A stretch of DNA of 64,000 nucleotides from Patescibacteria group bacterium (GTDB lineage: Bacteria; Patescibacteriota; Doudnabacteria; UBA920; O2-02-FULL-48-8), in the NCBI GenBank assembly GCA_036278915.1, contig DASUKB010000001.1, forward strand, positions 7,259-71,258, written 5' to 3'. Below are positions 1,852 through 46,446 of the stretch, one piece after another. Both the position numbers and the translations under genes were made by a program. Every line of letters starts with the position of its first letter. Position 1 is the first letter of the stretch. The notes under the pieces are model-generated. The model searched no databases. It was not told the DNA's origin and worked only from the letters and a program-made list of their open reading frames with translations.

Positions 1852-2355
1852 ATGTACAGTCATTAAAAACCAAATTAAGGAGCAACTAAAAACACTCGGT
1901 TTTTGAGCAAATTTCTTTGATCCCTGTTGTTGTATGGGATATCGAGGAACACGAAAGGCTCGTGTTTTTTACTTGCTAAAGTGGTTTTGTGAAGTACCTT
2001 AACAATTGCATACCCAAGAATTATCAATTAGATAATCAGTCTCGCAAAGTGCGGGATCGACAACCAATTGCAGATAATTTATTGGGAATAAGACGCCGAA
2101 CCTTTTGCCGTCAAGCTAAAGGGGAGGCAAAGACGTCAATTACTTTGATTCTAGATTCCCGTTTACGGGAACAAAGGTTTGCAATTTGACCTTTTAAAAA
2201 AATAAATTGCGCCAGTTTAATCTGATTTCAGATTACACTCACAAAATTATGACCTCACTCTTTTATTAAAGGGAAAGAGGTTAGCAAATACGGCTCTGCC
2301 GGATTTGCGATGTAGGAGAAAACCGCTAGGTTGTCTCCTACACATAATTCATTGA

Positions 2356-2399
<44 letters not shown>

Positions 2400-2516
2400 G
2401 ACATGCAAGTCGAGTGGGTTTAGACCCACGGCGAACGGGTGAGTAATACCTGGGAACTTTCTTCTAGTTGAGGATATCCTCCCGAAAGGGAGAGCAATAC
2501 TCGATGTGCCCAGCCC

Positions 2517-2805
2517 TTTTCTTAGTTGTATAATGTTAATTATGTATTATGTATATATAATCAAACATGATCCTTCCGGAGATATCTATATTGGATTCTC
2601 GGACAATGTTGATGCGAGATTGACTGCTCATAACAATGGGCAAAATACCTCAACACGAAGATTGTCTGGCCAATGGATACTAACATACACAGAAGCTTAT
2701 CGTTCAGAGCAAGATGCTCGTGAAAGAGAACGAAAGCTGAAACAGTACGGAAGCGCCAAACAGAGATTACTAAAAAGGATCTCAAGAAGTTTTGGAAACT
2801 GAGAA
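2517..2805 (+). other. intervening sequence (IVS) in the 16S gene, closed by a 12-bp stem
   Basis: CCCAGCCCTTTT at 2508-2519 pairs with AAAAGGGCTGGG at 2806-2817; the AT-rich interior interrupts otherwise conserved 16S sequence. Confidence 0.75.
2533..2802 (+). CDS. small GIY-YIG nuclease-superfamily protein (YhbQ/UPF0213-like) encoded inside the 16S IVS
   Basis: YVYIIKHDPSGDIYIGFSDNVDARLTAHNNG followed by an E/R/K-rich helix matches the GIY-YIG core; start codon uncertain (GTG 2506, ATG 2533 or ATG 2542). Confidence 0.7.
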   Translation: MLIMYYVYIIKHDPSGDIYIGFSDNVDARLTAHNNGQNTSTRRLSGQWILTYTEAYRSEQDARERERKLKQYGSAKQRLLKRISRSFGN

Positions 2806-2935
2806 AAGGGCTGGGTAAAGCAGCAATGCGCTAGATGTGAGGCCCGGGCCCCATCAGCTAGTTGGTAGGGTAACGGCCTACCAAGGCTATGACGGGTAGC
2901 GGAAGCGAGAGCTTGATCCGCCACACTGGGACTGC

Positions 2936-2968
<33 letters not shown>

Positions 2969-3463
2969 TTGGAATTTTGGACAATGGGCGAAAGCCTGAT
3001 CCAGCGACGCCGCGTGCACGAAGAAGGCCTTCGGGTTGTAAAGTGCTTTTGCTTGGGAAAAATTTTTGATTGTACCAAGAGAATAAGAGGTTGCTAACTC
3101 TGTGCCAGCAGCAGCGGTAATACAGAGACCTCAAGCGTTATCCGGAATCATTGGGCGTAAAGCGTACCGATAGGTGGTTTTGCAAGTTTTGGGTAAAAGC
3201 CAGAAGCTCAACTTCTGCGTTTGCTCAAAATACTGCAATACTAGAGGGACAAAGAGGTTGCTGGAACGAACGGTGTAGTAGTGAAATGCGTTGATATCGT
3301 TCGGAACACCGAAAGCGAAGGCAGGCAACTGGGTGTCACCTGACACTGCTAGGACGAAAGCGTGGGGAGCGAATGGGATTAGATACCCCAGTAGTCCACG
3401 CTGTAAACGATGAGTGCTAGGAATGCGCGAGTATCGACCCTCGTGCGATCCGTAGCTAACGCG

Positions 3464-3560
<97 letters not shown>

Positions 3561-3970
3561 GTAAGCGAGGAACCTTACCAAGGCTTGACATTCTTCTGCA
3601 AGCGCACGGAAACGTGTGACCTTCGAGGGTGAAGAACAGGTGCTGCACGGTTGTCGTCAGCTCGTGTCGTGAGATGTTCCCTTAAGTGGGAGAACGAGCG
3701 CAACCCCCATGTTATGTTGATTTTCATAACAGACTGCCGGCGTTTAAGCTGGAGGAAGGCGGGGATGACGTCAAATCAGCGTGGCTCTTACGCCTTGGGC
3801 GACACACGTGCTACAATGGATAGGAACAATGGGACGCAACACCGTAAGGTAGAGCAAATCCTCTCAAAAACTATCCTCAGTTCAGATTGAGGGCTGCAAC
3901 TCGCCCTCATGAAGCTGGAATCGCTAGTAACCGCAAATCAGCCTCGTTGCGGTGAATACGTTCTCGGGTT

Positions 3971-4001
<31 letters not shown>

Positions 4002-4341
4002 GGTAAGTACCCAATATTTGCGCAAGCGAACGAAGGTAAGTATCATGACTGGGGTGAAGTCGTAACAAGGCATCGGTAGCGGAAGCTGTCGATGGATCAC
4101 CTCCTTTCTAAGGAGAATTCTGCAGAAACAGGAATCATTTCGATGAATCCTGCGGAGCAGTAATGATGGTCGATTCAGAATTGAAGCTCGCAAGAGCAGA
4201 TATTCTGAACACATCAAGACTCTGACGTTTATGTGGTTTTCGAAAGAGAATCGCAATCTTATTCCCAATAAATTGTCTGGAACCTGAAGGGTTTCTTATG
4301 ATGGAAAGCCTGGTGGCCTCACGGTCACAGGCTTTTTAAAT

Positions 4342-6344: not shown

Positions 6345-6385
6345 TTAGAGTGTTCGCGTTGGACGTTCAAATGTTCCGCGAACAC

Positions 6386-6440
6386 CCGCCCGTACCGAAT
6401 AGTTATCGCTTAATTGCGGTACATTCGGGCGGGTTTTTTC
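6386..6440 (+). terminator. rho-independent terminator (second of two hairpins after the mini-operon)
   Basis: CCCGCCCGTACCGAAT...ATTCGGGCGGG followed by TTTTTTC; preceded by hairpin GTGTTCGCG...CGCGAACAC at 6351-6386. Confidence 0.75.
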
Positions 6441-6500: not shown

Positions 6501-9413
6501 ATGATAAACAAATTTCAACGTTATAGTTTGCCCCTGACGGTTCTAGTTTTTGCTTTCGCTTATCTTTTGTTGGCGGCGCCGCACGCACACGCCGCAACCA
6601 ATTATTATGCCTCACCGGCTGATCAAGGCTTGGGAGATTGTTCATCGGCCGGCAACGCTTGCGATTTGTTGCAAGCGCTGACCGCGGCATTTAATAACAC
6701 GACTGATTCGACTGTAATGATGTCGGCCGGGACTTATGCCGGTTTTTTCAGTTTTGATACTTCCTTTGGCCATGTCTTCACCCTCACAGGAGCCGGAAAT
6801 GATGTGACTATAATTGAGCCGACAGGAAGCACTGGCATGGAAATTGGGACGCTATCCACTATCAGCATTAATGATGTCGCATTTGATAATAATGCCGACG
6901 GTCGGGGACTGACGATTGATTCTGAAGGGAGTTTGACTGTAAACGACTGCGTGTTCTCCGGTAATGCCGGCGGCGGCCTTATTGACACTCACTTCGCGAA
7001 TACCGGCAGCGTGAGCATCATCAACGACACATTTACCAATAACAGTTCCAGTGGCGATGGCGCGGCATTTTCCTTTACTGACAACGGTACGACTGCGGCT
7101 ATGCCGATCACGGTCTGGGATACCGATTTCGAGAATAATACCTCGACCGGTGGTTCGGGAGGAGCCATCTCTATTGGTTCCAACTCGAATTCTTCACCCG
7201 TATTGATTAGAAGCAATAATTTCAGCGGCAATACCGCGGCCAATATCGGCGGCGCTGTTTATGCTTTCACTACCGGTACAAATTCTGGAATTACTTTAGG
7301 CGATGGAGGGTTGGGGCATGACAACACGATTACCGATAATACAGCCCACGTGGACGCCGGTGGATTTTATATAGATACTGATGGCGACGGCAGTCCTGTC
7401 ACCATTGAAAATAACACTGTCGGTACGACAGGCCACGGCAATAGTTCCGGTGATTTCGGCGGCGGCGGTAAGGTTTTTGCTGGGTCTGGCCTCACCTTGA
7501 TTGGCAATACCTTTACGGATAATACCGCGGGAGGCAATGCCGGCGGCTTGGGCGTACTAATTGACAGAGACGACGGCAATACTTCCGATAATTCTATCGC
7601 CAACAACACTTTTACAAACAACACCGCGCACTTTGATGGCGGTGGCCTAAATCTGAGCGTAAGTTATGCGGGTAATTTAACTGTCGACGCCAACACTTTT
7701 ACAAACAACACCGCAACTACAGGAGAGGGCGGCGGCTTTCGGTTGCAGCAGTTTGCGTCTAGCTCGCAAGTGGTTGTGACCAACAATTTGCTCGTGAATA
7801 ATACCTCCGGTACGGAGTCTGGAGGGTTTGATTACTACGATCAATCATCCGCGGGTTTAGACTTTATCAACAACACAGTTGCCGACAATATCGCCGGGAA
7901 CAAAGTCGGTGGCGCGAATTTCGGAGTGGATAATATAACCGCCGATTTGAATATTTATAATAATATTTTTTGGGGAAACACCAGCAATTCCGCCCACGAC
8001 GTGCATATAGATCATTTCAACTTTGATGTGACAAAGTTCTATAACAACGATTCATTTGATTTTTGCCTGCACGTTGAAGCTCTTGACGAAGACAGTTGCT
8101 TCGACTCAACCGGTATGGCACCAAATTTTAACGGTGATGCGGGTGTTAACGGAGTTTATGATCTAGGGAGGGGCAATATAAAGGATGACCCGGAATTCAC
8201 AGATGCGGATAATGGCGACTACACGCTGACGGAATTCTCTCCGGCTTTGGATAGCGGGTTGGATACGGCTCCGAATTTGCCCGGGCACGATATTACCGGC
8301 AATGGCCGCATCCAACATACCCACGCAGATATGGGAGCGTATGAATTAATCATTCCGGCTCAAGATTTGGTTCCGTATGTTTTAACTGCCATAACTCCAA
8401 TCCCGGATCATGTGGATGGTACGACTGCAACTTATACTTTTTCCGCTACCGGAACCGGAGAAGCGGAATATGTAGCTCAAACATGCGGCGGGAGTTCCCA
8501 AGCCAGCATGACGGAGATTACGGATCATCCGGAGGCCCAGCAATTTATTGTCACCAATTTAACACCCGGTCAGACTTATTCATGCAATTTTGAGGTTTTA
8601 TCCATTGCTGGTTATTCCAACCAACTAGACGTGGGTCCGTTCACAGTAAATGATAACGGGGCTGTCCCCGTGCAATTTTTGATTGATCAAACAAGAGCCA
8701 CAGCGCATCCGGACGGTACGCTCGTGCTGGATGGCCAGACAGTGTACCTCATCAAAGACGGCAAACGGTATGGCTTCCGTGATCCGAGCGAATACGAATC
8801 CTACGGATACAACTTTAGCCAAGTGGTGCCAGCTAACGATTCCGACATCAGATTGGGATTTGATCCTGCAAATATTATGAAAGCCATGCCCGGGACATTG
8901 GTGCTGGACAAGTCCGACGGCCGCACCGTATATATGATTGGAGAAAATTATACCAAGCGTGGGTTTGTCTCATCTGCAGTGTTTAAAGATTTGGGGTATA
9001 CGTTTAAAAATCTGCCGACGATTGATTTGTCGGATTACCCGACCGGCCCTGCCGTTGACTCAGCAACAGATGCCCATCCGGAAGGGTCGCTCGTGTTGGA
9101 CAGCAAAACTGTCTGGTGGATTTTGAATGGCGTAAAGCTTGGATTTGAAAGCATGACTGTGTTTAATACCTACGGATTTTCCCTGAATCGCGTGGTCAAA
9201 GCGGACAGCTCAGATTTGGAGCTGCCCACGGGCAATCTGATTCCGTTGCGCGACGGCACACTTGTGCTAGATGGCGGAAATTATTATATAATCTCCGATG
9301 GCGCCAAACGCCAGTTTGCTACACCTGCGGCTCTATCCAACTGGGGTTATAAAAGTGGCAACGCGGTAAATACAACGATATCATCTTATCTAGATGGCCA
9401 GCTGATTAATTAA
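6501..9413 (+). CDS. giant secreted protein: signal peptide, long right-handed parallel beta-helix (pectin-lyase-fold) region, then four C-terminal 60-aa repeats
   Basis: N-terminal signal MINKFQRYSLPLTVLVFAFAYLLLAAPHAHA; many N-N-T-F-T-N-N-T-A/G-G-G repeats; four GTLVLDG..VY.I..G.R..F...F...GY.F repeats at the C-terminus. Confidence 0.7.
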   Translation: MINKFQRYSLPLTVLVFAFAYLLLAAPHAHAATNYYASPADQGLGDCSSAGNACDLLQALTAAFNNTTDSTVMMSAGTYAGFFSFDTSFGHVFTLTGAGNDVTIIEPTGSTGMEIGTLSTISINDVAFDNNADGRGLTIDSEGSLTVNDCVFSGNAGGGLIDTHFANTGSVSIINDTFTNNSSSGDGAAFSFTDNGTTAAMPITVWDTDFENNTSTGGSGGAISIGSNSNSSPVLIRSNNFSGNTAANIGGAVYAFTTGTNSGITLGDGGLGHDNTITDNTAHVDAGGFYIDTDGDGSPVTIENNTVGTTGHGNSSGDFGGGGKVFAGSGLTLIGNTFTDNTAGGNAGGLGVLIDRDDGNTSDNSIANNTFTNNTAHFDGGGLNLSVSYAGNLTVDANTFTNNTATTGEGGGFRLQQFASSSQVVVTNNLLVNNTSGTESGGFDYYDQSSAGLDFINNTVADNIAGNKVGGANFGVDNITADLNIYNNIFWGNTSNSAHDVHIDHFNFDVTKFYNNDSFDFCLHVEALDEDSCFDSTGMAPNFNGDAGVNGVYDLGRGNIKDDPEFTDADNGDYTLTEFSPALDSGLDTAPNLPGHDITGNGRIQHTHADMGAYELIIPAQDLVPYVLTAITPIPDHVDGTTATYTFSATGTGEAEYVAQTCGGSSQASMTEITDHPEAQQFIVTNLTPGQTYSCNFEVLSIAGYSNQLDVGPFTVNDNGAVPVQFLIDQTRATAHPDGTLVLDGQTVYLIKDGKRYGFRDPSEYESYGYNFSQVVPANDSDIRLGFDPANIMKAMPGTLVLDKSDGRTVYMIGENYTKRGFVSSAVFKDLGYTFKNLPTIDLSDYPTGPAVDSATDAHPEGSLVLDSKTVWWILNGVKLGFESMTVFNTYGFSLNRVVKADSSDLELPTGNLIPLRDGTLVLDGGNYYIISDGAKRQFATPAALSNWGYKSGNAVNTTISSYLDGQLIN

Positions 9414-21420: not shown

Positions 21421-21497
21421 GGGCGACTAGCTCAGGTGGTTAGAGCGCGTCACTGATAATGACGAGGTCGATGGTTCGAGTCCATCGTCGCCCACCA
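21421..21497 (+). tRNA. tRNA-Ile (anticodon GAU)
   Basis: cloverleaf GGGCGAC/GTCGCCC acceptor, anticodon loop CTGATAA, T-loop TTCGAGT, encoded CCA. Confidence 0.9.
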
Positions 21498-21830: not shown

Positions 21831-21904
21831 GGGCCGTTAGCATAGTGGTAGTGCAGTCGGTTTGCATCCGACAGGCGCGAGTCCGATTCTCGCACGGTCC
21901 ACCA
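21831..21904 (+). tRNA. tRNA-Ala (anticodon UGC)
   Basis: anticodon loop TTTGCAT; G3:U70 alanine identity pair in the acceptor stem; encoded CCA. Confidence 0.8.
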
Positions 21905-41241: not shown

Positions 41242-41704
41242 TGGAACAAGCTAATGCCAAAACAAACAAAAACCTCAAGTTTTAACGTAAAAAATATGAA
41301 ATTCTCCAGCAACTCACTTCAACGAAAGGCGGTTATGTAAACTGGCGCTTTAGTTTGTGCCCAGAATTCAACCGCCGAAAGGCGTTTTTTTGTTCCTTAC
41401 AACTAACATCTAGAATTCAGTGCTTCACCGCATTGCTTGACTTTAAGCAGGTTCTGAAAGTAAGCACTGTATTCTGGATGTAAGCGGATAGAACTTTAAC
41501 AATTTACCGGCATCTAAGAGATATATTTTCAGTTTGCCAAACGTATGAGAGATGATGAGTCTCGAAGGTAGGCGTTTAGCAAAACATAAGTTAGTGCTTA
41601 TGAATATATCTGAATCCAAATCCTCGGCATTGTAACCGGGGTAACTCTGGCTTAACTGTCGGAGTATAAAAAATAGCAATCACTAATTGCTAGTCAAGAA
41701 TCTG

Positions 41705-45168
<3,464 letters not shown>

Positions 45169-45239
45169 TTAAATTTTTGACTAGCGTTTTGTGATTATTA
45201 TCACAAGTTCATTTACATCCCCGCTTTCGCGGGGACAAG

Positions 45240-45778
45240 ATTGTTTGCCGGAAAATGGAATGGCCACCTCATTATTATTCTCGCCCGCGAAGCGGGAGAG
45301 ATGTCACGCATCAGCGTGACAGAGAGGGTGGTTTAAAAGTTTGGGAGCCATGTCAGACATCTGGGCTTACGCTCAATCGCTGAAACATGCGAGCAACACG
45401 AGCCACGAGCATAAAACATCTGTCTGTCTCAAGCTCCCATTCAGTTAGGAGTGATTTGGTGTTTTGAAAGATCAGGGACGGCTCATAACCCGAACTGATT
45501 GTTCCGGTTCGTACCACCTTGAGTGGCAACCGCCGTGAACCAGGCGCCAGAAAACTCCTCCGGGATGATCTCCATCTGCCACTTCTTGGAGTCTCCCGGT
45601 CATTTCGATACTGGGGAACGGTGAAAAATTGGATTTGTGTTCATTCTGCCCTAAGACACACTCGGGCGGAATTTGAGCCGAGTCCAAGGTGTTCCTATCT
45701 CTCCTTTCACCTCTCCGTTTCCCAGACCTTTCTCCCGACGAGCTTTAAGCTTGTCGGGCCCATTTTCCGGCAAACAAT
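45240..45778. repeat. 539-bp element bounded by perfect 19-bp inverted repeats (ATTGTTTGCCGGAAAATGG / CCATTTTCCGGCAAACAAT) in the 23S-5S spacer; MITE-like or a large structured spacer RNA
   Basis: inverted repeats read directly; the interior is rich in GC hairpins (CTCGCCCGCGAAGCGGGAG, TGTCACGCATCAGCGTGACA) and has no credible ORF. Confidence 0.6.
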
Positions 45779-46134
45779 ACAACTCCGACGTTTTGCATAA
45801 CAAAAGTCGGAGTCCTGACTTGCATTTTTGTGCATCGTCGGGATTGACGGCGATTTTTGCTCTTTCCATAATGATTCCAAACTGCTATAATTAATCAGTT
45901 GGAACTAATATGGATTTGCTAATGCAAAGATATTCGCCTTCGCTTAAATTGGTAGGACTTATAATCGTTATCGCGGCCATGGGATTTATAATCTTCGCGC
46001 TTACGAAAAACACCCTGCCAATGCAGTAATACAGCGCTTCGCACTGTAATTTCTAAGCCCTAATATCTAAGCTCTAAACAAGATTAGAAATTAGTAATTA
46101 GAACTTAGAAATTGCAGCACGTAAGTGCTGAATA

Positions 46135-46252
46135 TCTCCTCGTGCTTCAAGGGCCGCTGCCCCACCCGATCCCATCCCGAACTCGGAAGTGAAACGCGGC
46201 ACCGCTCATGATACTCCAGTGTAAGACTGGTGGGAAAGTAGGCAGTGCGGGG
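46135..46252 (+). rRNA. rrf: 5S ribosomal RNA
   Basis: CCACCCGATCCCATCCCGAACTCGGAAGTGAAACG loop C/helix III block and 3' GAGAGTAGG-like segment; boundaries approximate. Confidence 0.8.
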
Positions 46253-46446
46253 TTTTTTATTTATATTGAGGGACGAACCTACGGTTCTTCCCTCAACGCG
46301 CCGTCAGCAAAGCTGATTTTTGCTTCGCAAAAACAAGCGGCGCTGCTCCTTTCTCCCTTCTTAATTGACCTAATTGGTCTTTTTTGTTGTCCTAAAAAAT
46401 AGTGGCTTCGTTTAGAAAATTTTTTTGTGTTGGGCGAGGAAATTTG

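Follow-up and report, generated by a model that had tools for sequence, protein, structure and literature searches.

In this Patescibacteria genome, a long spacer separates the 23S rRNA gene from the 5S rRNA gene; is it occupied by a mobile DNA element or by a folded RNA? In the window, by which we mean the whole 64,000-nt stretch of DNA that was analyzed, the 23S gene (41704-45172) and the 5S gene (46138-46253), both delimited by Rfam matches, are separated by 965 nt, in line with the ~950 nt that an earlier note on this DNA had estimated and called unusually long. On the rRNA strand, the spacer holds a segment bounded by a perfect 19-bp inverted repeat, with the arms ATTGTTTGCCGGAAAATGG (45240-45258) and CCATTTTCCGGCAAACAAT (45760-45778) separated by 501 nt, exactly as that note had described. 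When up to three mismatches are allowed, the arm occurs at only two sites in the 64-kb window, against a chance expectation of 0.06. The note had left two readings side by side, a MITE and a structured RNA domain with a possible processing stem. The reading that we favor, on balance rather than with confidence, is that the element is a folded RNA cassette bounded by a processing stem, which lies in the rRNA transcription unit of Doudnabacteria-like Patescibacteria and is cut out at the helix formed by the two arms (P1). The features discussed below are as follows.

45162-45200, + strand: 3' strand of the 23S processing stem, trailer TTTGACTAGC..GTGATT (RNAduplex with leader 41679-41711, -49.7 kcal/mol)
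45240-45258, + strand: 5' arm of P1, ATTGTTTGCCGGAAAATGG (inverted repeat; homologous arms in 10 other lineages; covariation)
45262-45333, + strand: module M, two hairpins enclosed by GGCCACCU/AGGGUGGUU (minimum-free-energy (MFE) fold; comparison by eye)
45343-45438, + strand: long hairpin GGGAGCC...AGCUCCC, specific to the window (MFE; no BLAST counterpart in relatives)
45438-45572, + strand: domain R1 (BLAST, 79%; RNAalifold; pair counts; covariance model; MFE)
45573-45733, + strand: 3' half, several hairpins, specific to the window and lacking an R2 match (cmsearch; MFE)
45734-45758, + strand: terminal hairpin adjoining the 3' arm of P1 (counterpart in every element examined)
45760-45778, + strand: 3' arm of P1, CCATTTTCCGGCAAACAAT (inverted repeat; covariation)
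45782-45830, + strand: post-element hairpins, one followed by a T run and terminator-like (not conserved in relatives)
45844-45891, + strand: promoter-like sites TTGACG-17-CATAAT and TTTCCA-17-TATAAT (consensus scan)
45910-46029, + strand: small ORF of 39 aa with one hydrophobic helix (14 lineages compared)
46138-46253, + strand: 5S rRNA gene (Rfam)

The element differs from its surroundings in base composition, with 50.8% G+C compared with 38-40% in the remaining spacer, and it folds far better than shuffled sequences. On the + strand, the predicted RNA fold reaches -233 kcal/mol (z = -9.1), and on the - strand -219 kcal/mol (z = -7.6), so that the GC-rich, hairpin-packed interior described earlier holds up. 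The MFE structure of the window element is multi-branched and closed by the 19-bp helix P1. The same helix closes the MFE fold in all three lineages folded, with z-scores of -9.1 for the window, -7.1 for L021 and -7.5 for L017.

A protein-coding gene is the least likely explanation. A 93-aa ORF with a TTG start does exist at 45519-45800, but 23 short overlapping ORFs cross the spacer on its two strands, this one among them; non-coding DNA would be expected to look this way, and none of the 23 resembles a gene. The ORF extends over the 3' arm of P1, and in the spacers of relatives no homolog of its region was detected, whether sought with BLAST or with cmsearch using the R2 model described below. 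The earlier view that the interior holds no credible ORF thus stands, and the chance that this or another short ORF in the element encodes a protein is close to nil. Known RNA families did not account for the element either. At the gathering threshold, the 4227 models of Rfam 15 matched only rRNAs and tRNAs in the window, and at E<=10, where matches below ~15-20 bits would go unlisted, three spacers or elements (window, L018 and L021) returned only chance miRNA or CRISPR-repeat-like matches.

The same locus was compared across relatives, taken from around homologs of the endonuclease Q gene (47702-48964 in the window; its product is identical to a protein of a 'Patescibacteria group bacterium' MAG, and its closest relatives are annotated Candidatus Doudnabacteria) and from metagenome contigs scanned for a lineage-specific 23S 3' end. 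This yielded 23S-5S spacers from 17 further distinct lineages (among them L018, from GCA_037200925.1), making 18 with the window. A stem-bounded element is present in the same spacer in 11 of the 18: the window, L009, L015, L017, L018, L021, L024, L026, L029, L038 and L039. The L024 element is cut off by a contig end, leaving ten complete elements with that of the window. The seven remaining lineages (L011, L022, L023, L025, L028, L030 and L040) are element-free, and in six of them the spacer measures only ~205-290 nt. All spacers share one order, in which the 23S end is followed by the trailer TTTGACTRGC.., the optional element, a promoter-like TTGACG-17-TAAnAT, a small ORF and the 5S gene. 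The trailer is conserved in every relative, including those without an element. The insertion polymorphism that the earlier note proposed to look for is therefore present, and since seven lineages have no element and the carriers have different domain sets, the segment is not an ordinary spacer kept alike in all relatives. Near-identical assemblies (L009/L010, L015/L016 and others) offered no informative polymorphism within the elements. Carriers and non-carriers interleave in a neighbor-joining tree, with the window grouping with the element-free L011; the tree is rough, having been built from 5S and small-ORF sequence that is short and noisy. Such a pattern implies repeated loss, or less likely gain, among close relatives, and hence an element that is dispensable.

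Evidence on the nature of the element comes from its closing stem. When the ten complete arm pairs are aligned, 93.7% of cells fall in standard pairs, and five positions (13 cells) have changed on both sides. These are position 6 (U-A to G-C), position 10 (C-G to U-A), position 11 (G-C to A-U), position 13 (A-U to G-C) and position 1. The observed covariation score was reached by none of 500 shuffles, and partners slid out of register pair at only 36-43%. The picture is the same with eight sequences as with ten, and the covariation counts, both here and for R1 below, rest on four to ten related sequences. Conservation is concentrated in the arms, which are 89% identical on average, whereas full-length elements, arms included, show 34% column identity in a MAFFT alignment of eight elements that is very gapped and usable only at the arms and a few blocks; domain-wise alignments were used instead. 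Judged from the aligned arms, these patterns show that selection maintains P1 as an RNA helix. The mismatches also carry a strand bias. On the + strand, eight cells read as G.U or U.G, where the other strand would have A.C, and one cell shows the opposite. Counted as independent events the ratio is ~6 to 1, which is suggestive rather than conclusive of an RNA made on the rRNA strand.

Terminal repeats bound by a transposase would likewise undergo matching changes in both arms, so the argument for RNA rests on the ~6-to-1 excess of G.U, on the single locus and on the conservation of the arms. This bears directly on whether the element could be a MITE, that is, a non-autonomous DNA transposon whose 19-bp arms are terminal inverted repeats recognized by a transposase acting in trans. 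The resemblance is considerable: a perfect inverted repeat, a length of a few hundred bases, no ORF and presence or absence between related lineages. The position of the element is also not fixed with respect to (T)AAGATGCC, a short motif that in element-free spacers stands ahead of the promoter. This motif follows the element in most carriers (the element lies between ATTTACA and AAGATGCC in L015, L017, L018 and L021) and precedes it in L029, where the element lies between AAGATGCCA and TTGACG. In L038, the motif stands on both sides of the element, with AAGATGC in each flank, on the left ~25 nt from the left arm. Local rearrangement or movement, rather than simple inheritance, could account for these two positions.

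However, the element does not behave as a family of mobile copies. With up to three mismatches allowed, neither the 64-kb window nor ~304 kb of related loci contained a second copy of either arm type. A search of 185,579 species genomes for the exact 19-mer of the window gave seven single matches in unrelated taxa, about the number expected by chance, none of them paired and none with further similarity, and a degenerate arm pattern run against viral contigs gave five unrelated matches, none with a right arm. The additional copies of the termini that would have marked a MITE are thus missing from all of these sets. Nor is there a consistent target-site duplication. The ACAA that the earlier note had seen on both sides does not survive inspection as a clean duplication, as the flanks read ..ACAAG before the element and ACAAC.. 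after it, and by eye no direct repeat is shared in the flanks that were compared for the nine other elements. The element is found in one and the same spacer and in one orientation throughout, its neighborhood has no transposase gene, and the arm mismatches are mostly G.U on the rRNA strand. Finally, the interiors have diverged and the arms have been conserved, whereas decaying MITE copies would show the reverse. We therefore regard a transposon as very unlikely.

Inside the arms, the elements are mosaics. The interior measures ~320-720 nt and differs in domain content between lineages, and the only parts found in every element are P1 and the hairpin next to its 3' arm. One interior domain, R1, is a three-way junction made up of a long helix, a hairpin with the loop CUCAUAA (45482-45488) and a nested helix with the conserved CAACCGCC. 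It is carried by five lineages (window, L015, L017, L026 and, in part, L024) and is missing from five of the ten complete elements. Between lineages R1 is ~79% identical by BLAST, whereas the element sequence around it cannot be aligned. RNAalifold assigns it 36 pairs, eight of them with compensatory change, and 88.9% of cells are paired, with an observed score reached by none of 500 shuffles; the pairs were counted on the same alignment from which the structure was derived. The R1 helices are also predicted by the single-sequence MFE fold of the window. A covariance model built on R1 scores 118-133 bits in four lineages and found no other match in the window or in 19 other loci. Of the two original readings, it is thus the structured RNA domain with a possible processing stem that gains from the comparison, through its recurrence in the same spacer of 11 lineages, the compensatory and G.U changes of P1, and the covariation within R1.

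A second domain, R2, combines two hairpins, the first of them long (GGGAAGUURCC.../...GGUAACUCC), with the motif AAUUYYAAGGAGA. Its model was seeded with L017, L018 and L021, and beyond these seeds it is significant in L029 (41 bits), L009 (37), L026 (23.5) and L015 (21). L018 has a second copy (19.9 bits), and matches in L038 and L039 are weak. R2 is clear in seven of the ten complete elements; that of the window is not among them, its best score being 4.1 bits in a cmsearch run with the filters off. A smaller unit, module M, directly follows the left arm in the window and in L009, and by eye it also stands alone, without a 19-bp stem, in L023/L032.

Such variability raises the possibility that only the closing stem matters, either as a processing signal or because it is tolerated, and that the interior is fast-evolving filler without function, much like the intervening sequences (IVS) of 23S rRNA. 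IVS occur in helices 25 and 45 of 23S rRNA in Salmonella, Leptospira, Campylobacter and Rhizobiales and are removed by RNase III at their stem. Like the elements, they are stem-bounded extra segments (~100-750 nt) with a variable interior and a sporadic distribution among close relatives. That P1 is universal while the interiors vary greatly in length and domain content, and that the 3' half of the window element is without counterpart elsewhere, would also suit a passenger of this kind. Yet IVS lie inside the mature 23S rRNA, which is fragmented by their removal, whereas the element belongs to the 23S-5S spacer; the 23S Rfam match is complete to model position 2925 of 2925 at 45172 and the element starts at 45240, so it is outside the mature 23S rRNA. 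Moreover, the element interior is partly conserved across lineages, with covariation (R1 and R2). An R1 that remains ~79% identical amid unalignable surroundings and has eight compensatory pairs is difficult to reconcile with filler, as are an R2 that is recognized in four elements beyond its three seeds and weakly in two more, and z-scores of -7 to -9 in all three folded elements. We consider a functionless passenger a serious but less probable explanation. At the same time, as only P1 and the adjacent hairpin are universal, the window lacks R2 and half of the complete elements lack R1, a single function shared by all interiors is doubtful.

Several interiors are linked to tRNA. In L015, L018, L029 and L038, tRNA or tRNA-like genes lie inside P1, which indicates that in these lineages the enclosed stretch is made into RNA. 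The L015 element contains a tRNA-Glu-like gene, and that of L018 a tRNA-like gene with an insert of ~30 nt together with tRNA-Cys. The tRNA-like genes map to 8153-8252 in L018, 4240-4333 (- strand) in L029, and ~530-630 and 957-1034 in L038; they have either an insert of 20-35 nt that extends the anticodon arm or odd anticodons (four bases in L029 and ACA in L038, as called by ARAGORN), and they perhaps do not function in decoding. In the window element (45240-45778), ARAGORN calls no tRNA and there is no Rfam tRNA match at E<=10. R1 itself includes a hairpin, GGCUCAUAACCCGAA, with 15 nt identical to what we take to be the anticodon arm of the E. coli initiator tRNA, and the CAU of its loop is retained in the diverged L026 version. 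Together, this hairpin and the tRNA-like genes of the relatives point to modules that mimic tRNA or descend from it. Taken further, the elements might be a family of stable RNAs of 350-760 nt with exchangeable modules that mimic parts of tRNA (the CUCAUAA loop of R1, the tRNA-like genes) and act in trans. Such RNAs would, for example, bind a factor that recognizes initiator or methionine tRNA, or serve ribosome or tRNA quality control. We offer this extension as speculative and rather doubtful.

The proximity to tRNA also brings RNase P to mind, and we considered whether the element could be an rnpB gene, its RNase P RNA highly diverged and its terminal helix formed by P1. By eye, GGAAAGUUUGGG, just after P1, resembles what we take to be conserved region I; a likeness to presumed stretches of type A RNase P RNA is seen in GGUAACUCC..CCGG and CAAUUUUAAGGAG. 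tRNA genes adjoin the elements or lie inside them. RNase P RNAs of the candidate phyla radiation (CPR) can also escape Rfam models: according to Lui et al. (2021, PMC8172020), they were undetectable at Rfam cut-offs in 10 of 35 complete CPR genomes, with helices missing or extended. Nonetheless, the window spacer, the L018 spacer and the compact L021 element gave no match at E<=10 to any Rfam model, RF00010 and RF00011 included, and inspection did not reveal a 3' strand of P4 of the ACAGAA..CCGGCUU type. GGAAAGU follows P1 in some elements only. Apart from P1, no domain is common to all, given that the window is without R2 and five of the ten complete elements are without R1, and seven sister lineages have nothing at the locus. 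The absence of a shared core and the sporadic presence are unlike an essential ribozyme with a universal core. With no universal core, an empty locus in seven lineages and no P4 3' strand, identity as RNase P RNA was rejected as very improbable.

The surroundings of the element place it within the processing landscape of the rRNA. Its start lies ~40 nt past the end of the 23S processing stem (45200), on the same strand as the rRNAs, and a consensus scan found no promoter-like site between that stem and P1. Downstream, by eye, a TTGACG ... TAAnAT pair stands ahead of the small ORF in most spacers, whether or not an element is present. Since this promoter-like site downstream of the element is conserved, it may also allow the small ORF and 5S to be transcribed separately. 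The -10 box is only ~7-20 nt upstream of the ATG, and a Shine-Dalgarno sequence is not seen, so the small ORF may have a leaderless mRNA that is produced jointly with 5S rRNA.

The small ORF is 32-39 aa long with the core M-x-K/R-Y-K/S-x-S-F/L-K/R-L-V-G-L-L-L..A..G..V-F/Y-x-V-T-S/K-N-T-L. Homologs are found in L009, L011, L015, L017, L018, L021-L023, L025, L026 and L028-L030, and by eye in L038-L040. Across 14 lineages, the differences per codon position are 0.27/0.15/0.56, and on this substitution pattern the conserved ORF is a coding sequence, for a predicted membrane peptide. It stops ~25-30 nt before 5S in most of the 14, with or without an element. In the window, the gap between the ORF and 5S instead contains an AT-rich long hairpin (46044-46117; 34-nt arms, 79% complementary) with tandem 14-nt units (TAATTTCTAAGCCC and similar), where most relatives have only the ~25-30 nt.

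Other small repeats were seen in the relatives. The elements of L017 (~2055-2125) and L039 (~6365-6440 and ~7130-7200) are flanked, in L039 on both sides, by copies of a palindromic unit, ..GGTGCAGGTTTCAG..TTTTTCTGACCCCTG..CCCCTCAGCGCTGACCCCT..; by eye this unit resembles a small REP-like or MITE-like repeated hairpin. In the element-free L040 (~3550-3950), the promoter-like site occurs twice (TTGACC.. and TTGACGATTGCG..), and an insertion of ~130 nt with a long hairpin seems to interrupt the start region of the small ORF.

In the window, the rRNA genes are dispersed over 44 kb, with 16S at 2349-4107, tRNA-Ile at 21421, tRNA-Ala at 21831, 23S at 41704-45172 and 5S at 46138. The intervals between them, some 17 kb and 20 kb, are taken up by protein genes that mostly share their strand (beta-helix proteins, an MFS transporter, type IV pilus, DNA ligase). 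The 16S gene (1759 nt versus a 1533-position model) and the 23S gene (3469 nt versus a 2925-position model) must both carry insertions. No group I intron was called in the window; in relatives, group I introns with LAGLIDADG ORFs lie inside 23S (1666-3388 in L013/L016; 1905-2540 in L040). Unlinked rRNA genes with other genes in between are common in CPR, as described by Lui et al. (PMC8172020).

Set in this context, the folded RNA cassette that we favor would work as follows. Transcription on the rRNA strand would make the element the 3' tail of the 23S precursor, and the ends of the element would pair to form the 19-bp helix P1. RNase III, or a similar RNase specific for double strands, would cut P1 as at the neighboring 23S stem, separating the 23S part of the precursor from the downstream RNA and releasing the cassette as an RNA of 350-760 nt with paired ends. 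By analogy, the working mode of P1 may resemble that of the leader-trailer stems of 16S and 23S rRNA. These RNase III substrates are likewise long helices, formed by the flanks around an RNA that is to be released, and they show compensatory change. P1 differs in that it encloses variable folded domains, with no rRNA and, in the window, no tRNA; it is absent from several relatives, and its cleavage is predicted. Within the cassette, the conservation of R1 and R2, at the least, seems sufficient to imply a role for these domains themselves, perhaps one connected with tRNA.

A description of a stem-bounded spacer element was not found in the literature, and the element belongs to no described RNA family, though it is related in kind to rRNA processing stems and to intervening sequences. 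Spacer and distal tRNA genes of rRNA operons provide a partial parallel, as relatives have tRNA or tRNA-like genes inside the stem, whereas the window element has none. GOLLD and ROOL RNAs are also several hundred nt long, with a multi-domain fold and an association with tRNA genes; however, they are located in prophages, whereas the element lies in an rRNA spacer, has no Rfam match and is not constant in its domain content. tRNAs and protein genes in CPR rRNA spacers are described by Lui et al. (2021, PMC8172020), the available portion of which does not mention the 19-bp stem, R1 or R2.

For annotation, the locus is a caution that a perfect inverted repeat around an ORF-less segment of an rRNA spacer can be an RNA helix, not a transposon. 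With coordinates in 11 lineages, P1, R1 and R2 make a defined candidate for structure probing and metatranscriptome mapping, and the element contributes to what is known of rRNA operon rearrangement in the candidate phyla radiation. If our reading is true, uncultivated bacteria with very small genomes would keep a large folded RNA in their single rRNA transcription unit, with its closing helix maintained while the enclosed contents are swapped.
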